64,000 nucleotides of DNA from Candidatus Dormiibacterota bacterium (GCA_963709585.1 CAVPXI010000008.1:60534-124533); one strand, 5' to 3'; numbered from the stretch's first letter, positions 49,449 to 58,446 are shown. The notes: a model not told the origin generated them from the sequence alone. Made by a program: numbers and translations.

Positions 49449-50591
49449 ATGCGCATCACGGCTCCCACCGAGACGGCGCCCGGCGAGACCCGGGTCGCCC
49501 TGGTTCCACGATCAGCCACACAGTTGGTGTCCACCGGTGCAACGGTAGCGATTCAGGCGGGGGCGGGGATGGCCGCGGGCATCACCGACGCGGCCTACCG
49601 GGAGGTGAGCGCGGAGGTGGTCCCGGACCGGGCGACGCTCCTGGCAGACGCCGACATCGTGGTGGTCGTGCGCCGCCCCGACGCGGCGTTTGTCGGCCGG
49701 CTGAAACGGGGATCGATCCTCGTCGGCGTGCTCGAGCCCGCCGGTGATCCTCCGCTGGTTCGCGCCCTCGTCGACGGTGGCATCACCGCGTTTCGCCTGG
49801 AGGCGATGCCCCGGATCAGCCGTGCCCAGGACATGGACGTGCTCTCCTCGATGGCGACCCTTGCCGGGTATCACGCGGCAGTGATGGCAGCGTTCCGGCT
49901 GCCGCGAATCTTCCCGTTGATGATGACCGCGGCTGGGACGATCACCCCGGCGCGCGCGCTCATCCTCGGCGCGGGGGTCGCCGGCCTGCAGGCGATCGCG
50001 ACCTGCCGGCGTCTCGGCGCGGTGGTCGAGGCCTTTGACGTGCGGCCCGCGGTGCGGGATCAGGTCGAATCCCTCGGCGCTCGCTTTGTCGAAACCGGCG
50101 TCGAATCGGAGATTCAGCAGGACACCGGTGGATACGCGCGCGAGCTCGAGGCCGACGCCCAGGTCCGCCAGCAGCAGGTGCTCGCCGAGCACGTCAAGGA
50201 CTCCGACGTGGTGATCACGACCGCGCAGATCCCCAATCGAAAGGCGCCCGTGCTCGTGACCGCGGACATGGTTGCGTCGATGCGAACCGGTTCGGTGATC
50301 GTCGACCTCGCCGCGCCGGGAGGTGGCAACTGCGAGCTCACGCGCCCGGACGAAGAGGTCAACGCCAACGGTGTGCTCATCCTCGGGCCGACCAACCTTC
50401 CGGCCTCCATCCCCGGGCAGGCAAGCCAGCTGTACTCCCACAATGCCACCCGTTTTCTGCTGCAGCTGCTCAAGGATGGGCAGGTGCATCTCGATTTCGA
50501 GGACGTCGTGATCAGCCAGACCTGCATCACCCACGAGGGCAAGGCCATGGGTGAGCAGATCGAGGCACTCCTGCAGGGAGCGACTGCGTGA
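49449..50591 (+). CDS. pntAA: NAD(P) transhydrogenase alpha subunit part 1
   Basis: ETRVALVP, RISRAQ.MD.LSS, GAGVAGLQA, GGNCE. Confidence 0.93.
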   Translation: MRITAPTETAPGETRVALVPRSATQLVSTGATVAIQAGAGMAAGITDAAYREVSAEVVPDRATLLADADIVVVVRRPDAAFVGRLKRGSILVGVLEPAGDPPLVRALVDGGITAFRLEAMPRISRAQDMDVLSSMATLAGYHAAVMAAFRLPRIFPLMMTAAGTITPARALILGAGVAGLQAIATCRRLGAVVEAFDVRPAVRDQVESLGARFVETGVESEIQQDTGGYARELEADAQVRQQQVLAEHVKDSDVVITTAQIPNRKAPVLVTADMVASMRTGSVIVDLAAPGGGNCELTRPDEEVNANGVLILGPTNLPASIPGQASQLYSHNATRFLLQLLKDGQVHLDFEDVVISQTCITHEGKAMGEQIEALLQGATA

Positions 50592-50926
50592 GCCCTGCGC
50601 AGACGCTCGCACTCGGTGCCTTCATCTTCGCGCTCGCGGTGTTCGTGGGATTCCTGCTCATCTCGAAGGTCCCGACGATGCTGCACACGCCGCTGATGTC
50701 GGGGACGAACTTCATCCACGGCATCGTCCTGGTCGGGGCGATCACCGTCGCTGCCGGCGCCAACGACACGCTCGGGTACATCATCGCCATCGCCGCAGTG
50801 CTGCTCGGCACGCTCAACGTCGTCGGCGGCTGGGTCGTCACCGACCGCATGCTGCAGATGTTCCGGCGCCGACCCGCGGCCGATGCGCGCAAGGCGGAAT
50901 CGCCGCCGCCGACATCGGACCGCTGA
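50588..50926 (+). CDS. pntAB: NAD(P) transhydrogenase alpha subunit part 2
   Basis: LHTPLMSGTN, NVVGG.VTDRML.MF. Confidence 0.93.
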   Translation: MSPAQTLALGAFIFALAVFVGFLLISKVPTMLHTPLMSGTNFIHGIVLVGAITVAAGANDTLGYIIAIAAVLLGTLNVVGGWVVTDRMLQMFRRRPAADARKAESPPPTSDR

Positions 50927-50931
50927 CCACG

Positions 50932-52326
50932 ATGCAGCCGTCCGCGCTAACCACCCTCGGCTACATGCTGACCGCGATCAGCTTCATGTTCGGCATCCAG
51001 CTGCTGCGCTCGCCGGCCACCGCGCGCCAGGGGAATCGCGTGGCGGCGGTGGGCATGTTGCTCGTGCTCGGCATCACCGCCGCGCTCGTGCACAACACCG
51101 GCAACTGGCCGCTGATCATCCCGCCGATCGTCATCGGCGCTGTCATCGGCACGGTATCGGCTCGGCTCGTGCAAATGACCGCGATGCCGCAGATGGTCGC
51201 GCTCTTCAACGGCATGGGCGGCGGCTCCGCAGCGCTCATCGCCGCGCAGGATTTCCGAACCTCGGTCGCCGCCGGGACCGCCCATCCGGACATCACGTGG
51301 GCGATCATGGTGAGCTGCGTGATCGGGTCACTCAGCTTCGCGGGTAGCCTGGTGGCGTTCGCGAAGCTGCAGGAGTTGATGCCCGGCCGGCCACTCACGT
51401 ACCAACTGCAGAGCGCGGTCAACGGTCTGCTCCTGCTGGTGATCCTGGCACTCGGGGTCTACCTGATCGTCGCTGATCAGAACCTGGCGCTCTTCGCGGT
51501 GTACATCGTGCTGTCGCTGGTCCTGGGCGTGCTTTTCGTCGTGCCGATCGGCGGCGCCGACATGCCGGTGATCATCTCGCTGCTCAACTCCTTCACCGGG
51601 CTTGCGGCGGCGAGTACCGGATTCGTGCTGAGCAACGACGTGCTCATCGTCAGCGGCGCGCTGGTCGGTGCGTCGGGAACCATCCTGACCCTGGCGATGA
51701 GCAAGGCGATGAATCGATCGCTCTTCAACGTCCTCTTCAGTGGCTTCGGTTCGAAGGTCGAGGCGGCCGGCAGCGCGGCGGGCGCCGAGGGTGGCACCAT
51801 TCATCCCACCACAGTCGAGGACCTTGCACCGTTGCTGGCGTTCGCACAACTCGTGGTGTTCGTCCCGGGATACGGCATGGCGGTCGCGCGTGCGCAGCAC
51901 GAGGTCAAGGAGCTCGCCGACGAACTCGAGAAGCGTGGCGTCACCGTCGAATACGCGATCCACCCGGTGGCGGGACGGATGCCCGGCCACATGAACGTGC
52001 TGCTCGCCGAGGCCAACGTGCCGTATCCGCAACTCAAGGAGATGGATGCGGTGAACGGCGACTTCCCGCGCACCGACGTGGCGGTGGTCATCGGCGCCAA
52101 CGATGTCGTGAACCCCGCGGCGCGCACCCAGACCAACAGCCCGATCTACGGCATGCCGATCCTCGATGTCGACCAGGCGAAGACCGTCGTGGTTCTCAAG
52201 CGCAGCATGGCGACGGGCTTTGCCGGGGTCGACAACCCGCTCTTCTACAAACCGAACACGCTGATGCTCTTCGGCGACGCGCGCACCTCAGTGGCCGCGC
52301 TGGTCGCCGAGGTCAAGAAGCAGTAG
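50932..52326 (+). CDS. pntB: NAD(P) transhydrogenase beta subunit
   Basis: MPQMVALFNG, GGADMPV, HPVAGRMPGHMNVLLAE. Confidence 0.95.
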   Translation: MQPSALTTLGYMLTAISFMFGIQLLRSPATARQGNRVAAVGMLLVLGITAALVHNTGNWPLIIPPIVIGAVIGTVSARLVQMTAMPQMVALFNGMGGGSAALIAAQDFRTSVAAGTAHPDITWAIMVSCVIGSLSFAGSLVAFAKLQELMPGRPLTYQLQSAVNGLLLLVILALGVYLIVADQNLALFAVYIVLSLVLGVLFVVPIGGADMPVIISLLNSFTGLAAASTGFVLSNDVLIVSGALVGASGTILTLAMSKAMNRSLFNVLFSGFGSKVEAAGSAAGAEGGTIHPTTVEDLAPLLAFAQLVVFVPGYGMAVARAQHEVKELADELEKRGVTVEYAIHPVAGRMPGHMNVLLAEANVPYPQLKEMDAVNGDFPRTDVAVVIGANDVVNPAARTQTNSPIYGMPILDVDQAKTVVVLKRSMATGFAGVDNPLFYKPNTLMLFGDARTSVAALVAEVKKQ

Positions 52327-52717
52327 TGTCCGGGGCCTTGCCGGTGCTTGCGACACTGCGTAAGGCGATCAGCAGGTCCGCGGGAGCGGTGTCCTTCACC
52401 ACGTAGCCGACTGCTCCACTCTTCAGCGCCTCGACCATGCGCTCGTGGCCGCCAAACGACGTCAGCATCATCACCCGCGTGCTCGGTTCGGTCTCGACGA
52501 GCCGTCGCGTGGCCTCGATCCCGCCCATGCCGGGCATCGAGAGGTCCATGAGCACGATGTCCGGATGCAATTCCGCAGCCATCTCGAGCGCCTGCTCGCC
52601 CGAGTCCGCCATCCCGACAACTTCGATGTCGGGCTCGTGTCCGAGGAAGGAGGCAAGCCCCTTGCGGACGACCGGATGGTCGTCGACGATCATGACGCGG
52701 GTCGCTGCAGGGGGCAT
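52313..52717 (-). CDS. stand-alone response regulator receiver (NarL-type REC, no HTH)
   Basis: VDDH, MDLSMP, LTS, GYVVK; 134 aa. Confidence 0.88.
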   Translation of the reverse strand: MPPAATRVMIVDDHPVVRKGLASFLGHEPDIEVVGMADSGEQALEMAAELHPDIVLMDLSMPGMGGIEATRRLVETEPSTRVMMLTSFGGHERMVEALKSGAVGYVVKDTAPADLLIALRSVASTGKAPDTTAS

Positions 52718-52729
52718 CCGTCACCCACT

Positions 52730-54226
52730 CTACTCGATGGGCAGCGTTAGAACGACAAGGGTGCCGCGGCCTCGTTCGGAGTCGATGGTGAGTGTTCCCC
52801 CGACCTCCTCCGCAAGCTCTTCAATCGCCCGCGTGCCGAGGTGCCCCGCCGCTCGCCGGCGCTCGACGTCCTCGCGAGTGAAGCCTACTCCGTCATCCTC
52901 GATACTCAGGATCGCCGAGCCGTCCTCGGTGATCAATTCCACCTTGACGTTCTTTGCCTTCGCATGCGCGGCAACGTTGCGAAGGATCTCGTGCGCCACC
53001 CGGAAGATCAGCGCCGCGCGATCTTCGCGAAGCCGGAGATTGGGTGGCAGGTCGAGTTCGGTGTTGGTGCCCTTGCGCTTCATCTCGCGCAGTACCTCGA
53101 GCAGTGCCGCTTGGAGTCCCTCACGACGTAGCGTCGGCGGAGCCAGTTCGATGATGAGCGTGCGCAGCTCCTTCATCGCTCCGCGGGTTTCAGCCGCGGA
53201 CGTCTCCAGCAAGTCGAGGAGTGCGGCGTGGCCATTGTCAACCACCGGTTGCGACTTGAGTTGCGAGGCCTCAGCGGACAGCGTCAATGCCATCCCAGCA
53301 AGGTTCTGTACCACGCCGTCGTGCAGATCGCGGGCGATCCTTCGCCGCTCCGACTCCGACGCGTCAACCGCTTTCTGCAGCAAGGCTTCTTTTTCCTTCT
53401 GGTCCTTGTTGCGCTGTTCCTCATAGTCGTGCATGCGACGCGCGAAGATGATGAGATACACGTGCAGCATGATCACAGGCGCCAGCAGCGCCATGAACCC
53501 TGCCGTCTGGGCATATCTTTGCATGGTCACGAAGGCGAAGGCGGCGAAGCCATATCCGATGCTGTACGGCAGGACCGCGACGCGCCCTCGCAGGGTCTGT
53601 CTCATCTGTGCACTGGGATCCGACAGACGAATGACCATCGCCACGAGGCCGGAGTTCACCGTGAAGTGGACGAGCCCAGCAGCGAGTCCCGCCACGAGGT
53701 CTAAAGGTATAACTCCCCCAACACCAAGTCCGTGGACCCACTGGAACACGCCCCAGGCAGCGACATTGGCGAGGAAGTAATCCGCAATGTTGAAGCTCGT
53801 CCGGAACCAGCCGTTTCGGGTGCGAAGGGATATGCCGATCGGCTCTGCCAGAGCCCCGATCGCCGCTCCGGCGGGTCCGAATGTGACTGAGAGACCGAGG
53901 TGAATATACGGTGATGGGACCCATGCCACGTTGGCCGCGGGCGTTGCCTTGATCGCGAAGACGGACATCAGGAAGATGGTCGTTCCGGCGATCGCGACGG
54001 TTACGAGGTCCACCGGTACGCGGACCCATAGAACGGCTGCGAGACCCACAATCACGGCGGCAGCGACCGTCGCGGCCACGTAGGTGACGAGACCCGCGGT
54101 GTAATGGACTGGCCCGAGCGCGGGCGTTTGCGGCAGCAGCTCCAGGCGACGGATCGCCGTCACGGCGCTGCGAAGCGGTCGACCCTTCTCAGTCCCTTGT
54201 GTCCGGGGTGCGACGGCATCCTGCAT
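52730..54226 (-). CDS. membrane sensor histidine kinase (HisKA_3)
   Basis: ~7 N-terminal TM helices, ERRRIARDLHD, NVAAHA, DDGVGF, GT. Confidence 0.92.
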   Translation of the reverse strand: MQDAVAPRTQGTEKGRPLRSAVTAIRRLELLPQTPALGPVHYTAGLVTYVAATVAAAVIVGLAAVLWVRVPVDLVTVAIAGTTIFLMSVFAIKATPAANVAWVPSPYIHLGLSVTFGPAGAAIGALAEPIGISLRTRNGWFRTSFNIADYFLANVAAWGVFQWVHGLGVGGVIPLDLVAGLAAGLVHFTVNSGLVAMVIRLSDPSAQMRQTLRGRVAVLPYSIGYGFAAFAFVTMQRYAQTAGFMALLAPVIMLHVYLIIFARRMHDYEEQRNKDQKEKEALLQKAVDASESERRRIARDLHDGVVQNLAGMALTLSAEASQLKSQPVVDNGHAALLDLLETSAAETRGAMKELRTLIIELAPPTLRREGLQAALLEVLREMKRKGTNTELDLPPNLRLREDRAALIFRVAHEILRNVAAHAKAKNVKVELITEDGSAILSIEDDGVGFTREDVERRRAAGHLGTRAIEELAEEVGGTLTIDSERGRGTLVVLTLPIE

Positions 54227-54361
54227 GGGTTGGATCCTATTCCGCGCGCGGCGTTTGGCGCGGTGTATGTGACAGCATTGTCGGAACCGTACGCAGGGAA
54301 ACCCCAATGGTGGCCTGACGTTTGACGCGTTGTATCGGCACTACCGCGTCGCTCGCGTCAG

Positions 54362-54381
54362 TTATCACAACGCGATGATAA
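54362..54381. promoter_or_regulatory. palindrome TTATCA-N8-TGATAA in divergent promoter region
   Basis: Perfect AT-rich inverted repeat between kinase and micro-ORF 1. Confidence 0.4.
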
Positions 54382-54519
54382 AGCGAAGAAATGTGAACGC
54401 GAGATCACGCGCATGGTCTTAAGCCCAGAGAACCTCCAGAGGATTACAGTACGTGCAATACCAGCGCGTCGGCGGTCAGGTCTCACGCTACCCGCAGGCG
54501 CAGATCCGAGGAGGTTCCC

Positions 54520-54555
54520 ATGGCTACATGGGGCGATAACGAAGCCTGGGGGTAG
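54520..54555 (+). CDS. micro-ORF 1, MATWGDNEAWG (11 aa)
   Basis: GAGGAGG RBS 5 nt before ATG; C-terminal AWG shared with micro-ORF 2. Confidence 0.65.
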   Translation: MATWGDNEAWG

Positions 54556-54801
54556 CCCCAGGGTTGCCCGGCACTCACTCTAGAGCGCCGGTGTGACGAT
54601 CCATTGGGTGATTGCGTGACGGGCCGATAACGGGTCGATCGCGTCATCATCACGGAGGGGCCTGTCGATGGCGGGCCGCCGGGTGCGCATGTGCGCGCAT
54701 TCGGCCCCGGTTGGCTGCTGTTCGCGTACGCTTGCGACGCGAGTGAGAACCCCTAAAAGGACGCGACTCTGAGAGCCTCAACGGGAGCGACCACCGCCCC
54801 G

Positions 54802-55987
54802 TTGCGAGCGCCTCGTCGCGCCCTGAGCCCCTCAGTTCGTTTGCTTATCGCCACGGGTACGTCCTCCTACGGCGACTGGCTCACGACGGTGGCACTGATC
54901 GTGCTCCTCTTCCGAGCCACCCAGTCCCCAATCGGCCCTGCCGTGTACATGATCGCCAGGGTGGCCCCGCGGCTGATCGGGCCATTCCCCGGCGGCGCAC
55001 TCGCTGATCGTTATGGGCCGGCCCGCATCGCCGCAGGGTGCGCCGTCGTTCAGGGCCTGCTCACGGCCTCGATCGTCGTGTTCGCGGACAGCCGGATCAT
55101 CTGGCCGATTTTTGTGGCGGTGGCACTCGCTCAGTTCTTCAGCTCGGTAGCACAGCCGTGCTATGGAGCGCTGGTCCCGCGTGTGACCGACGCCGCGGGT
55201 CTCGGTCGCGTGCAGGGCGCCTATGCCGCACTGAACAGTTCCAGCCTGCTGGTCTCCCCCGCACTGGGTGCGCTCGTGCTCCCGTTCACCGCGCCGGAGG
55301 TACTCGTCGCCATCGACGCGGCAACGTTTTTCGTGGCGGCCGCGCTGCTCGCCACGCTCGCGGGCGTGGGCGATGACACGTCTGCGCCTACCGGGTCCAG
55401 CCGGGGCATGTCGGCGGGGGTGCCCGTCGTGCTTCACGATCCGATGCTGCGATTCCTTGCCGTTGCGTACCTTTCGAATTGGGCTGCGGTGACCGCACTG
55501 CAGGCCGTGCTCGTGGTGGCCGCGGCCCAGCGGTTCGGTCATGACACCGCGGTGGGCTGGCTCTACGCGGCGATCGGAGCCGGGTCATTGCTCGGAACGC
55601 TCCCGGTCATACGCAAGACTCCCGAGCGAGTCGAGTCAGAAGCCGATCATCGCCTTCACGGCCCTCGAACTCGCGCCCCTGGCTGCGTTTGTGTTCGTCA
55701 ACAACATCGTGCTGGCCGTGGCCCTGTTATTCCTCAGCTCCGTCGGCGCGACCCTGTACCAGACACGAGGCGCAGTCGGTCTGCAGCAGCGGGTACCTCG
55801 TGAGCTGCTCGGGCGGACCACCGCAGTTGTGCGTTTCGCCGGATACCTCGGCATGTTGTTCGGGGCGATCGCCGCCGTTTCGCTGGTTCAATCGTTCGGC
55901 TGGGAGTCCACCGTCCTCATCGTCTGCGCCGCCGGGGCGACGCTGCTCTTCATCACCGCGGTCAGCGAGAGCAGCCAGTCCCACTGA
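54802..55987 (+). CDS. MFS transporter (MFS_3/DHA3-like), frameshift near 55635
   Basis: SSYGDWLTTVAL, GGALADRY, QQRVP.ELLGR. Confidence 0.85.
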
Positions 55988-56170
55988 CGGCGATCCCTTG
56001 TCGGGATGCCGGAAACATCCGCAAAGACTTGTGCAGATGTGGACAACGCTTGTTAACTCAGCCCAGGCGGCGCGAACGCAGCGACCGTGAGCGCCGCACC
56101 CTGTCGAAGCCAACCTTGCCCGACCGGTAGGACGAGGACCTTGGCGCCGGCGGTATCCATGGAGGCGGAA

Positions 56171-56197
56171 ATGGCGGACGGCGTAGCCTGGGGCTGA
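56171..56197 (+). CDS. micro-ORF 2, MADGVAWG (8 aa; in-frame ATG at 56159 would give MEAEMADGVAWG)
   Basis: GGAGG RBS 5 nt before ATG; C-terminal AWG shared with micro-ORF 1. Confidence 0.65.
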   Translation: MADGVAWG

Positions 56198-56250
56198 TTC
56201 CCCAACCCTTGACCCTCGGGGACGCCCGAGGTTTCTGAAATCCGTTGGGT

Positions 56251-56292
56251 GCGACGCCGTGGGTCTCTGCCCGCGGCGTCGCGCTTTGTTTT
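56251..56292 (+). terminator. intrinsic terminator between micro-ORF 2 and second MFS gene
   Basis: GCGACGCCGTGGG-loop-CCCGCGGCGTCGC followed by TTTGTTTT. Confidence 0.65.
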
Positions 56293-56316
56293 CCGCCACC
56301 CGATCCAGGAGTGGAC

Positions 56317-57658
56317 ATGCCGATCGACGTGGCACGCTTCTTCCCGCAGGCAGCAGGGACGCTGCCCAGGGCCGATCGATCCGCGCGCCTGCTGGTGGCA
56401 GCCGGGATCTCGACGTACGGGGACTGGCTCACCGTGGTCGCGCTCGGGGTCCTGCTGTTCGACCTGACGCACCGTCCGGAAGCGCCCGCCCTGTACATCC
56501 TTGCGAGATTCGCGCCGAGGGTGTTCGGGCCGACGCTCGGTGGGTCGCTTGCTGATCGCTTCGGGCCAAGCCGGGTCGCCGGGTGGTCCGCGCTTGGACT
56601 GTGCGCCCTGACGGCCGCCATCGTGGTCCTCGCCAATACCGGGACGGTATGGGCGATCCTCGTGGCAGTGGCCTGCGCGGGCTTCCTGGGCTCCGTCGCA
56701 CAGCCGGGCTACAGCGCATGTATCCCTCGAGTGACCCCTCCGCCCCGGCTCCTGCGCGTCAACGCGCTCTACAGCGGACTCTTCGAGTCGAGCGTGCTGG
56801 TTGCCCCGGTCATCGGGGCGGTCGTCCTGCCCTTCGTGCGGCCGCAACTCCTGGTCGCGGCTGACGCCGCGTCGTTCGGCGTCGCCGGCATCCTCGTGCT
56901 TTCGCTGCGCGTCGGTCCGGTGGCGGCGGGAGCCTGGCGGCCGCGCGATCGACCCCGCGCCGCCGCCGTCGTGGCCCGCGATCCGATGCTGCGGGCCCTG
57001 GCCGCCTCGTTCTTCTGCAGCGCGGCCGCCATCACCGCGCTCCAGGCGGTACTGGTCGTTGCCGCGGCCGATCGCTTCGGGCAGGCCACCGATGTTGGGT
57101 GGCTCTACGCGGCCGTCGGCGCCGGTGGGGTCGCCGGAAGCGTCCTGCTCCTGCGCTGGACTTCGCGCGCCATCAGCGCCCGGGGCATCGCGATCGGCTT
57201 CCTGCTCGAGGTCGCACCCATCGGGCTTTTCGCCGTGGTCGGCGGACTGATTCCGGCGCTCGGCCTGCTGGTCGTCAGCACCGTGGCCGCGGCGCTCTAC
57301 CAGAACTCGGGGTCAGACGGCGCTCCAGCAGCGTGTTCCGGCCGAGTTGCTCGGCAGGGTGAATGGCGTGATGCGCCTGCTCCTCTACGCGGGCATGCTG
57401 GTTGGAGCGATCGTCGCGGTGGTGCTGGTCGAGCTGATCGGCTGGTCAGCGCTCGTGCTCGGCACGGCCGCCGTCTCGGTCGTGGCATTCGCGCCGGCAG
57501 CGCTCACCTATCGCCGGCAACCACGGCGCCCCAACGAGGTCACCCTCGCCGGGACACCAATGGTGCTGGTTTCAGCTCAGACCGCGACCGCCTCGCGGAC
57601 TTCCTTCTCGATCGGCAGGCCGACCGAGTTGCCCCACTCGCTCCACGACCCGTCGTAG
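56317..57658 (+). CDS. MFS transporter paralog (MFS_3/DHA3-like), frameshift near 57310
   Basis: STYGDWLTVVAL, GGSLADRF; clearly similar to the 54802 gene; AGGAG RBS. Confidence 0.85.
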
Positions 57659-58446
57659 TTGCTCACGCGCGGGAAGCCGAGCAGGTAGCTCAGGACGAAC
57701 CAGGTGTGCGACGAACGCTCGCCAATCCGGCAGTACGTGATCACCGACTTGTCGTCGGTGACGCCCTGCGCGGCGTAGAGCTCACGGAGTGCGTCTGCGG
57801 GCTTGAAGGTGTCGTCGTCCTGGATTGCCTGGGCCCAGGGAATATTGGCTGCGCCGGGAATGTGTCCGCTGCGCTGTGCGCCTTCGTTCGAGTACTCGGG
57901 CGGCGCCGAGATCTCACCCTTGAACTCGGCCGGCGAGCGAACGTCGACGAGCGCGCGCCCCTCGACGCCGAGCGCCTTCTCGACGTCGCTTCGGAAGCTG
58001 CGAATCGAGGTGTCGGCGTCTGCCGCCCTGTATGAGGTCGCGGTGAACGACGGCGTCGCCTCGGTGACCTCGCGTCCCTCGTCGATCCACTTGCGCCGGC
58101 CGCCGTTGAGCAGGCGGATGTCACGGTGGCCGTAGATCCGGAAGGTCCAGAACGCGAACGCCGCGAACCAGTTCCGGAAGTCGCCGTAGAGGACGAGCGT
58201 GGTGTCCGGGATCGCGCCGACCCTCGAGAGGAGCTGCTCGAACTGCTCCTTCGAGAGGATGTCGCGACGCACCGTGTCGTTGATGTCTCGCTTCCAGTCG
58301 ACCAGCGCGGCGCCGGGGATGTGCCCCAGCTCGTACGAGGCCGACGGGTCGTAGTCCACTTCGAGCACCCGCACCTGCGGGTCGGTGAGGTGACCGGCCA
58401 GCCACTCGGTGGTGACCAGGACCTCCGGATGAGCGTATTCAGTCAT
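57577..58446 (-). CDS. thiosulfate sulfurtransferase (CysA/SseA-like)
   Basis: GHIPGA x2, YCRIGERSS, YDGSWSEWGN. Confidence 0.93.
   Translation of the reverse strand: MTEYAHPEVLVTTEWLAGHLTDPQVRVLEVDYDPSASYELGHIPGAALVDWKRDINDTVRRDILSKEQFEQLLSRVGAIPDTTLVLYGDFRNWFAAFAFWTFRIYGHRDIRLLNGGRRKWIDEGREVTEATPSFTATSYRAADADTSIRSFRSDVEKALGVEGRALVDVRSPAEFKGEISAPPEYSNEGAQRSGHIPGAANIPWAQAIQDDDTFKPADALRELYAAQGVTDDKSVITYCRIGERSSHTWFVLSYLLGFPRVSNYDGSWSEWGNSVGLPIEKEVREAVAV

Follow-up and report, generated by a model that had tools for sequence, protein, structure and literature searches.

Conserved tryptophan-ending micro-ORFs in the structured leaders of two MFS transporter genes of Dormibacterota: a candidate leader-peptide switch

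Two micro-ORFs and their conservation

The present analysis concerns very short open reading frames (micro-ORFs) upstream of two transporter genes in a Candidatus Dormiibacterota bacterium. They lie in a stretch of 64,000 nucleotides (nt; GCA_963709585.1 CAVPXI010000008.1:60534-124533), which is referred to as the window and whose first letter is position 1. Dormibacterota are abundant, uncultured soil and peat bacteria, and to our knowledge nothing is known of gene regulation in them. The locus comprises two paralogous genes belonging to the major facilitator superfamily (MFS), here called MFS1 and MFS2 (Pfam MFS_1/MFS_3), each with one micro-ORF upstream, together with divergently oriented genes for a kinase and a receiver (Table 1). 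Micro-ORF 1, ATGGCTACATGGGGCGATAACGAAGCCTGGGGGTAG, has 11 codons and reads MATWGDNEAWG, while micro-ORF 2, ATGGCGGACGGCGTAGCCTGGGGCTGA, has 8 codons and reads MADGVAWG. In both cases the Shine-Dalgarno (SD) sequence GGAGG stands exactly 5 nt before the ATG, and a pattern scan gives the spacers TTCCC for micro-ORF 1 and CGGAA for micro-ORF 2. The initial annotation of the window had proposed both micro-ORFs, with their positions and spacing, as well as the paralogous transporters and the divergent HisKA_3 kinase and receiver. The sequence, the pattern scan, the Pfam matches, the 53% identity between MFS1 and MFS2 and the roughly seven helices of the kinase bear this out. The 3.5-Mb genome was also scanned for GGAGG, a spacer of 4-9 nt, a start codon, 3-26 codons and a W-G-stop ending; only three ORFs of this form were found, and two of them are micro-ORFs 1 and 2.

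To collect related loci, an aligned set of the MFS paralogs was searched against genomes sampled at one per species. This gave 65 loci, namely 59 from metagenome-assembled genomes (MAGs) labelled Candidatus Dormibacterota or from a few MAGs labelled otherwise, and six weak actinobacterial matches. The 53 of these 59 loci with at least 420 nt upstream of the MFS match were counted, the other 6 being too short upstream. An ORF qualified when it lay in the interval from -420 to -60, was preceded by an SD-like site, had 7-16 codons and carried Trp among its last two residues. Exactly one qualifying micro-ORF precedes the homologous MFS gene in 53/53 loci, compared with 0/53 on the reverse strand of the same interval and 0/53 in a coding-region control; the SD-like site at all 53 is part of the search criterion itself. 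The conservation of the micro-ORFs in related loci is more than chance, and the scan of MFS homologs for upstream W-G-type ORFs that the initial annotation had suggested thus returned a Trp-ending ORF at every locus counted.

Of the 53 ORFs, 34 belong to type A, MA[TSN]WGDxxxW(G), 14 to type B, M[AG][TS]W[DN]xQC....W[GSAI], and 3 to type C; MQTWTGHEGSGWS and MASWDNFGWG are 2 ungrouped ones. At the three type C loci, the matched gene is the second MFS gene. When the second MFS gene was considered separately, an ORF of 8-9 codons with the pattern M[AT]xGxxW[GAS] was found before it in 31 of 34 loci and on the reverse strand in 0/34; by the same criteria, no type C micro-ORF was found before the second MFS gene in L017, L022 and L060. 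No such micro-ORF was found at six distantly related actinobacterial MFS loci or before six distant paralogs of the MFS genes in the same genome. All 31 type C micro-ORFs stop with TGA, end in TGG-G[GC]N-TGA and lie about 140 nt upstream of the second MFS gene, whereas type A mostly uses TAG. A UGA-specific mechanism for leader 2, involving release factor 2 or read-through by Trp-tRNA, is conceivable. Common to the family are a start with Met and a small residue and a Trp in the last or penultimate position; types A and B also have Trp as their fourth residue. The motif D-x-x-A-W-G, which the initial annotation had described as shared by the two micro-ORFs, is present in both of them in this genome. 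In relatives, the Ala varies between N, S, T, A and G, and the Asp of the second micro-ORF is often A or E; the full motif is therefore local to this genome, and only the Trp-(Gly)-stop ending is conserved.

The micro-ORF variation resembles that of coding sequence. Related micro-ORFs have 8, 10, 11, 14 or 15 codons, and the frame is kept through whole-codon changes. Among 54 listed ORF readings, 51 start with ATG and 3 with GTG, and the stops are 28 TAG, 19 TGA and 7 TAA. In the 30 distinct type A sequences, codon 2 occurs as GCA, GCC, GCG or GCT and Asp6 as GAT or GAC, while residue 3 alternates between Thr, Ser and Asn through second-base changes. The ratio of nonsynonymous to synonymous differences (pN/pS), computed pairwise and thus from pairs that are not independent, is 0.39 in frame versus 1.64 and 0.76 in the shifted frames for type A, 0.24 versus 0.91 and 2.33 for type B, and 0.59 versus 1.67 and 0.66 for type C. 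The initial annotation had staked its proposal on the conservation of reading frame, start and stop in homologous loci; the frame is kept there, and the in-frame pN/pS is the lowest of the three in each type.

Table 1. Features of the locus, with positions in the window, strand and basis of the assignment
Feature	Position	Strand	Basis
Receiver, stand-alone, NarL-type, 134 amino acids (aa), no output domain	52313..52717	-	Pfam Response_reg, E 5e-31
Polytopic sensor histidine kinase, 498 aa	52730..54226	-	Pfam HisKA_3 and HATPase_c; AlphaFold model
Divergent intergenic region, carries the GGTTACAGTAC box	54227..54465	.	Conserved block in alignment
Leader 1 5' hairpin, directly before the SD of micro-ORF 1	54466..54501	+	RNAalifold, alignment A5
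SD GGAGG of micro-ORF 1	54510..54514	+	Sequence and pattern scan
Micro-ORF 1, type A family MA[TSN]WGDxxxW(G)	54520..54555	+	Sequence; conservation; pN/pS
Mini-hairpin CCTGGGG/CCCCAGG at the end of micro-ORF 1	54545..54562	+	Terminator-like scan, which listed the opposite strand
Structured core of leader 1	54568..54705	+	A5 consensus; single-sequence fold
MFS1, SD AAGGA, probable CTG start 54769, stop 55985-55987	54750..55987	+	Pfam MFS_1 on both halves
Leader 2 long-range helix, 5' strand GGCGCCGGCGG	56143..56153	+	A3 helix 1; partner is MFS2 codons 2-5
SD GGAGG (56161-56165) and micro-ORF 2 (56171-56197), type C family M[AT]xGxxW[GAS]	56161..56197	+	Sequence; conservation
Hairpin H2 (56212-56230) and conserved box TTTCTGAAATCCGTTGG (56231-56247)	56212..56247	+	A3 helices 6, 2, 3
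Terminator-like hairpin (17 pairs), then TTTGTTTT	56247..56296	+	Terminator scan; A3 helix 7
MFS2, SD AGGAG (56307-56311), ATG 56317	56307..57658	+	Pfam MFS_1/MFS_3

Structure of the leader RNAs

From each micro-ORF to its MFS gene, conservation is seen in the nucleotide sequence itself, and both leaders have a predicted consensus structure. For leader 2 (alignment A3, 14 sequences), RNAalifold gives 46 pairs. In this structure 96.5% of the alignment cells are paired, compared with 38.6-42.1% after a shift of the 3' partners by 1-3 columns, and 9 pairs show changes on both sides, compared with 0-2 after the shift. Helix 1 joins GGUGCCGGCGG, just 5' of the SD of micro-ORF 2, with codons 2-5 of MFS2, AUGCCGAUCGAC. 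It has 9 pairs and 97.6% of its cells paired, and pair 12:203 is changed on both sides in 3 sequences. The first codons of MFS2, ATGCCGATCGAC, are nearly invariant in nucleotides in the A3 columns, third positions included. Helices 2 and 3 pair the SD region of micro-ORF 2 with the conserved box CUGAAUCCG, a small hairpin holds the micro-ORF stop codon in its loop, and hairpin H2 has 3 of 7 pairs changed on both sides. Just before MFS2, the consensus scan finds a terminator-like hairpin at 56247-56286 with 18 pairs, 12 of them GC, followed by a T-run tail. In A3 this hairpin corresponds to helix 7 (17 pairs), with 97.9% of cells paired and a U/C-rich tail in 14/14 aligned sequences.

For leader 1 (alignment A5, 30 sequences), RNAalifold gives 54 pairs, 14 of which have compensatory changes. 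The 5' hairpin pairs A5 columns 15-23 with 42-50, and pairs 21:44 and 22:43 are double-changed in 11 and 10 sequences, respectively. At the end of micro-ORF 1, the last Trp codon forms part of the stem of the mini-hairpin, and the stop codon TAG lies in the loop; the variants that end in W-stop have an equivalent hairpin ACTGG-TAA-CTAGT, as seen by eye in the alignment. The core of leader 1 consists of a hairpin at 54568-54591 with the conserved loop ACTSTAG (RNA ACUSUAG), a long hairpin at 54600-54660 that is opened by the box TCCATTGGGT (RNA UCCAUUGGGU), and a hairpin GCCGGGTGCGC..GCGCATTCGGC at 54678-54705. The SD of MFS1 lies in a small hairpin whose sides co-vary by eye as CUCC/GGAG, UUCC/GGAA and UCCC/GGGA. 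Type B leaders fold comparably, and in them the codons for W-D-T-Q form the hairpin CUGGG-ACA-CCCAG. In comparison with shuffled sequences, single-sequence folds give z = -3.26 for leader 2 and z = -3.74 for leader 1. Constrained folding with the ORF blocked leads only to the loss of helices.

Within the 3.5-Mb genome, GGTCGATCGCGTCAT and CGTGACG..CGATCGCGTCA are confined to this locus; a search for leader copies elsewhere with three specific motifs gave none, by motif match only and without a covariance-model search. When positions 52000-58000 were compared with Rfam 15 at E-values up to 1, the sole match was a flavivirus element on the opposite strand (E 0.67, 20.5 bits, with 46.5 needed). 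Upstream, an alignment block places the GGTTACAGTAC box about 58 nt before micro-ORF 1. A promoter scan of the divergent intergenic region found no sigma-70 consensus, and we infer that the box is the -10 or transcription start site region.

The linked two-component pair and the transporters

The AlphaFold model of the kinase (predicted local distance difference test score, pLDDT, 76.9) contains about seven long helices at residues 44-260. The N-terminal domain gives a MASE9 lead only (atlas 0.89; Pfam MASE9 in 2 of 24 relatives, E 0.058). In NCBIfam, the protein encoded beside the kinase matches NarL, MctR and similar models over their receiver part only. Among 23 relatives, the receiver frame in 21 ends in a stop without room for a helix-turn-helix domain, and in the other 2 it runs off the locus. 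These frames have 135-150 aa in relatives, with a shorter one in L011 that is apparently an assembly error. By these frames, the protein is a genuine, complete stand-alone receiver and not a truncated NarL.

The MFS gene is found in 46 of 50 other genomes of the same GTDB family (44 of 48 without the unpublished genomes G164 and G180) and in none of the 150 genomes (0/150) that represent four other families of the class. Within the genus, each of the 19 genomes has two MFS copies in tandem. The recurring gene order, obtained with tblastn, places receiver and kinase on one strand and micro-ORF, MFS1 and, where present, micro-ORF and MFS2 on the other, followed in the genus by a convergent rhodanese gene. 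Kinase and receiver are adjacent and divergent even in the type B loci, in which kinase identity falls to 35-40%. Judged by this synteny, the micro-ORF, structured leader, MFS gene, polytopic HisKA_3 kinase and receiver form one conserved, co-inherited unit, as the initial annotation had supposed for this locus.

The genes beyond the unit vary by lineage and include DoxX, saccharopine dehydrogenase, topoisomerase IB, acetyl-CoA synthetase, an HtrA-like protease and others. Within about 10 kb of the unit in this genome, there are only housekeeping-type genes (pntAB, rhodanese, methyltransferase, permeases and others). The 3' end of the receiver gene overlaps that of the convergent pntB gene by 14 nt (52313-52326), with pntAA-pntAB-pntB at 49449-52326. 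Pfam scans of the genes within about 10 kb here and of the neighbours in 10 related loci found no peptide-modifying, processing or immunity gene next to the unit; prenyltransferase, AgrB-type peptidase, radical-SAM enzyme and P450 were all absent from the linked genes. A precursor of a ribosomally synthesized and post-translationally modified peptide with a linked maturase was considered and rejected, since no such gene is linked.

The divergence of the locus is uneven. In the comparison with the closest relative, L025, the block of kinase sensor half, intergenic region and MFS1 (53350-55750) has 3-6 times the synonymous divergence (dS) of the flanking genes (Table 2), and other close pairs show a milder form of the same pattern. 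The ratio of nonsynonymous to synonymous divergence (dN/dS) in the sensor half is 0.31. Together with the raised dS in the sensor half and MFS1, this value indicates an older or imported history of the segment rather than positive selection in place, and it points to a sensor/transporter cassette that recombines between lineages. Compared with L025, micro-ORF 1 differs at 2 of 11 residues and micro-ORF 2 at none. L012 carries the same peptide as L026 (86% sensor identity) but a different one from L013 (84%). Peptide positions 7-9 vary, yet close relatives keep the residue through synonymous codons, as for Leu7 with CTA, CTG and CTC.

Table 2. Divergence between the locus and its closest relative, L025
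Segment	Nucleotide identity	Protein identity	dS
Receiver	95-97%	100%	0.16
Kinase catalytic half	90-95%	95%	0.28
Kinase sensor half (53350-54100)	67-79%	64-70%	0.64
Leader 1	92-93%		
MFS1	80-86%	87%	0.56
Leader 2 and MFS2	91-97%	95% (MFS2)	0.18 (MFS2)
Rhodanese	96-98%	99%	0.10

The best NCBIfam matches of both MFS proteins, all below cut-off, are a DHA3-type antiporter (TIGR00900), EntS, Tap and Mef. In this assembly, MFS1 and MFS2 each shift frame once, near 55633 and near 57304. Contigs of four public short-read runs have one base fewer at 55633 (X1, X2) or 55634 (X9, X13), and contigs of the same runs have one base fewer in MFS2 at 57304 (X1, X2) or 57305 (X13). Because the extra bases are absent from independent short-read contigs, both frameshifts are assembly insertions and the MFS genes are intact. 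No RNA run turned up among the sequencing runs listed as containing this stretch, and two runs of possible RNA origin consist of contigs of uncertain nature that are uninformative on expression. A decaying pseudogene locus was accordingly ruled out by the intact transporters in these contigs and by the complete stand-alone receiver. Indel errors are common in these assemblies, and apparent pseudogenes need checking. Several related loci from long-read MAGs (e.g., L046, L067, L068) give broken tblastn matches. The start of MFS1 is probably the conserved CTG listed in Table 1: GCTGA is conserved 7-9 nt after the SD-like site, and in some relatives the frame contains none of the starts ATG, GTG and TTG ahead of the first transmembrane helix.

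A third MFS paralog, unlinked to the others (G000:C7:271047-272297), is 41-47% identical to MFS1 and MFS2 and has no kinase nearby. Directly upstream of it lies a 58-codon ORF, MSDNGHWCHSATVSDTGRWGHSDGDNGHWTYSDTSVGGWRHSDGDGDTCHWFSHNNHW (G000:C7:272370-272543, minus strand; 2563-2739 in locus L003), which contains 7 Trp, 8 His, many Asp and Gly and a repeat-like DxGHW unit, and which ends in Trp-stop. By eye, its stop codon lies in the loop of a hairpin CAUUGG-UAGA-CCAGUG, and the SD of the third MFS gene can pair with an upstream CUCCCU. The transporter gene adjoins an ORF of 305 aa that resembles a transposase and lies upstream of the 58-codon ORF. No relative of the 58-codon ORF was found in 116 other genomes of the family, which makes it a single observation. 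It could encode a long Trp/His leader peptide or a metal-binding peptide.

Interpretation and comparison with known systems

The micro-ORFs may be cis-acting leader peptides within an RNA switch that controls MFS expression, a reading to which the comparative evidence gives about an even chance. They would then be translated upstream ORFs in a regulatory 5' leader before each of two DHA3-like MFS genes. In leader 2, the predicted fold would mask both the SD of the micro-ORF itself, through the conserved box, and the first codons of MFS2, through the sequence 5' of that SD. A ribosome initiating on the micro-ORF would open these helices, and a ribosome lingering at the terminal Trp or stop codon, within the small hairpin, would keep them open. 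In this way, MFS synthesis would be coupled to the behaviour of the ribosome on the micro-ORF. Candidate causes of lingering are scarce Trp-tRNA, a compound that stalls the nascent chain, or an intrinsic termination arrest similar to that of PepNL and TnaC. The kinase and stand-alone receiver would be a co-inherited partner of the transporter rather than a classical DNA-binding activator. The comparisons establish the ORFs, their conservation and coding-type variation, the RNA helices with their covariation, and the synteny; translation of the micro-ORFs, the direction of the switch and its signal are conjectural.

A cis-acting switch is favoured because every paralog has its own Trp micro-ORF, including the third MFS gene that lacks a kinase. 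It is also favoured because the micro-ORFs are built into covarying helices, which in leader 2 reach the SD and the MFS start and are followed by the terminator-like hairpin, and because the second peptide is nearly featureless and neither a maturation enzyme nor a DNA-binding regulator is present. The initial annotation had preferred a peptide that is exported by the MFS protein and sensed by the kinase, with a leader-peptide regulator of MFS expression as its alternative. Nothing computed supports the former, and the latter fits better than the signal, although it is not placed above an even chance.

Several observations weigh against a leader-peptide switch. The model gives the kinase and receiver no role, and it does not explain the hypervariability of the sensor half and MFS1. 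The small residue at position 2 (Ala, Gly, Ser or Thr) fits the removal of Met from a released peptide, for which a function purely in the nascent chain has no need. For type C, the in-frame pN/pS barely beats the lower of the two shifted values. Since only one codon exists for Met and for Trp, and Gly5 is invariably GGC, much of the peptide conservation could be RNA conservation. With regard to structure, RNAalifold found no long-range helix in leader 1 from the 5' flank of micro-ORF 1 to the MFS1 start beyond 3 invariant pairs. A convincing conserved pair of mutually exclusive structures could not be defined, and no conserved alternative pairing was found for leader 1.

The micro-ORFs might instead encode an exported signal. 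In this case, leaderless Trp peptides of 7-14 residues would be pumped out by the adjacent MFS protein and sensed by the polytopic kinase, and the leader would set the ratio of peptide to exporter. Such a signal is considered unlikely, although it draws on the co-inheritance of peptide gene, MFS gene and kinase/receiver even at 35-40% kinase identity, and on the hypervariable sensor half and MFS1 beside conserved flanks, where the peptide also differs from that of L025. The N-terminal part of ComP is its polymorphic part, and MFS exporters of tiny ribosomal peptides exist (microcin C7/MccC). There is also a weak NCBIfam match to 'ryptide export MFS transporter' (E 0.0087, far below cut-off). 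The variable positions 7-9, with residues kept by synonymous codons in close relatives, and the A, G or T at position 2 of nearly all peptides, which allows Met removal, are likewise compatible with a released signal. A polymorphic signal/sensor module beside a conserved regulator is described for comQXPA pherotypes (PMC4408185). Against this, the receiver lacks a DNA-binding domain in 21/21 visible loci, and the usual autoinduction loop is thus missing; no maturation gene, of the four kinds named above or of any other, is linked; and the second peptide, M[AT]xGxxW[GAS], carries little specificity. The Trp and stop codons lie in RNA helices, the leader helices tie the micro-ORF to the MFS start, and the third paralog has a Trp-rich upstream ORF without a kinase. 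Peptide identity does not track sensor similarity in the L012 comparisons, and the low dN/dS of the sensor half argues against positive selection in place. A fuller version of this proposal is somewhat less probable again. It would be a new kind of peptide communication, in which unmodified leaderless Trp peptides are exported by the MFS protein and read by the hypervariable kinase, the cassette is swapped like a pherotype, the receiver works without DNA-binding output, and the leader couples the synthesis of exporter and peptide.

It is quite improbable that the leaders act as RNA only, that is, as riboswitch-like elements binding a ligand or protein, with the micro-ORF as an untranslated or inconsequential by-product of the helices. 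The leaders are as conserved in nucleotides as the proteins are, modules shared by type A and type B leaders can be recognised by eye although the MFS proteins of these loci have no more than 42-47% identity, and the invariant codons TGG and GGC lie in predicted pairs. These points are opposed by the strong SD at 5-7 nt, the start, the open frame and the varying stop, which are kept in 53/53 and 31/34 loci despite whole-codon changes in length. Third-position variation and an in-frame pN/pS below that of the shifted frames argue for coding constraint, and no Rfam family was matched. The least probable of the readings is a trans-acting one, in which the released micropeptide would act inside the cell on the transporter, the kinase or RNA, as peTrpL (trpL) does on a multidrug-efflux operon. 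A 14-aa leader peptide that acts in trans on efflux genes is described in PMC7298713, and the peptide here is conserved with the MFS gene and the kinase. Nevertheless, the peptides have only 8-15 residues, are hydrophilic, lack a membrane segment and give no computed sign of binding.

Among known systems, the cis-acting reading comes closest to the ribosome-mediated leader-peptide attenuation of efflux and resistance genes, of which cmlA and ermC are examples. MFS and ABC efflux genes under such attenuation are mef(E)/mel (PMC4335068) and bmrCD (PMC4191407). Like these, the locus has a very short SD-preceded ORF in the leader of a pump gene of the drug:H+ antiporter type, then hairpins involving this ORF and the pump gene's ribosome-binding region, and a terminator-like hairpin, here before MFS2. 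Two features of attenuators were found. One is a short 5' leader ORF that has a ribosome-binding site to itself and is conserved in frame (53/53 and 31/34 loci, 0 in the controls). The other is an RNA structure tied to this ORF that covers the downstream initiation region or forms a terminator: in leader 2 the helices to the MFS2 codons and to the SD and the terminator-like hairpin, in leader 1 the small hairpin around the MFS1 SD. Unlike attenuators, the leaders here extend for about 150-300 nt after the ORF and are thus much longer, and kinase and receiver are always linked. In addition, the peptide families (MA[TSN]WGD..W, M.TWDTQC....W., M.xGxxWG) and the leader RNA match nothing described.

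A further parallel is provided by TnaC, PepNL and NanCL, which are also short ORFs upstream of a regulated gene. As described in PMC11890864, PMC8450073 and PMC8429421, these ORFs have 14-24 codons and block release at their stop; Trp is the inducer for TnaC, and read-through of UGA by Trp-tRNA occurs in PepNL. Peptides of 14 aa that arrest ribosomes at their own stop codon and thereby set the expression of the downstream gene are reported in PMC11890864. Here, a distal Trp-(Gly)-Asp and a terminal Trp are conserved, and all type C micro-ORFs (31/31) end in UGA. Unlike TnaC, PepNL and NanCL, the micro-ORFs have no sequence similarity to these peptides, type A mostly uses UAG, the ORFs are as short as 8 codons, and arrest is a prediction. 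The Salmonella/E. coli transporter gene mgtA, with mgtL in its leader, combines a two-component system (PhoQ/PhoP) with 5' leader elements (PMC11552253) and has, as here, a long structured leader with a short ORF rich in the codons of one amino acid (PMC11552253, PMC6460261). The locus differs from mgtA in that PhoP binds DNA and is not encoded beside mgtA, whereas the receiver here is output-less and always adjacent. Moreover, the sensing codon here would be that of Trp, compared with Pro in mgtL, and there is no sign of a metal-sensing RNA.

Peptide quorum-sensing loci offer the nearest comparison for an exported signal. In ComQXPA, and similarly in Agr, a small Trp peptide gene lies by a polytopic HisKA_3-class kinase with a hypervariable sensor half. 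A polytopic HisKA_3 kinase with a polymorphic sensor is present here as well (64-70% identity in the sensor half versus 95% in the catalytic half). A pre-peptide of the ComX type has about 50-70 residues and is processed to a short C-terminal pheromone, while the ORFs here comprise 8-15 codons, and their SD stands directly ahead of the start. In comQXPA, the genes for an isoprenyl transferase, the pre-peptide, the kinase and a DNA-binding regulator share one strand (PMC4008528). Unlike ComQXPA, the locus lacks ComQ, a pre-peptide leader and a DNA-binding regulator; it has an MFS gene in their place, the arrangement is divergent, and the peptide gene lies in the MFS leader. The Pfam scans of the locus and of the 10 related loci revealed no polyprenyl synthase, and the 134-aa protein is a receiver only, with no output domain in the 21 relatives in which the frame end is visible. 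Pfam likewise found neither an AgrB peptidase nor a LytTR domain at the locus. In the mcc operon, an MccB-type (ThiF/E1-like) adenylyltransferase gene lies next to the heptapeptide gene; no ThiF-family match was found among the neighbours here.

The gene content also resembles that of UhpABC-UhpT, in which an MFS paralog serves as co-sensor of a polytopic HisKA_3 kinase and two paralogous MFS genes likewise stand beside a multi-transmembrane HisKA_3 kinase and a NarL-type receiver. The kinase core matches the UhpB model with an E-value of 5.5e-23, which is below cut-off. Unlike in Uhp, the N-terminal domain of the kinase gives a weak MASE9 lead, not MASE1. UhpA binds DNA, and we know of no micro-ORF or structured leader in Uhp.

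Literature searches on leader peptides and on two-component and MFS loci in Dormibacterota returned nothing describing such a locus, and those for MFS genes controlled by leader peptides and for leaders with Trp codons led only to the known systems discussed above. For MASE9, one paper on HD-GYP domains and one unrelated paper were found. The peptide family and the leader RNA are absent from Rfam, Pfam and NCBIfam, in keeping with the statement of the initial annotation that no described family was recognised. By these comparisons, the locus reads as a putative leader-peptide-controlled transporter gene with an undescribed peptide family and RNA, and its link to an output-less two-component pair is unusual.

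The family would be among the shortest conserved coding sequences known (8-15 codons), and it is found in every locus examined. It is accompanied by a long, covarying leader RNA without an Rfam counterpart and by a two-component pair with an output-less receiver, whose sensor half appears to recombine with the neighbouring transporter. If the cis-acting reading is correct, the micro-ORFs would form a new class of arrest or leader peptides and could reveal what the transporters respond to; if they encode a signal, they would represent a new type of minimal peptide pheromone system. In either case, micro-ORFs that are missed by annotation can be found by conservation alone.

A shallow look at the roughly 500 nt upstream of the two chorismate-binding (trpE-like) genes of the genome, in which operon structure was ignored, revealed no short Trp ORF with an SD before it. 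At G000:C23:32819-33715, one of the two trpE-like matches lies in an open frame of only 316 aa whose N-terminal part looks out of frame, which may reflect an assembly indel.

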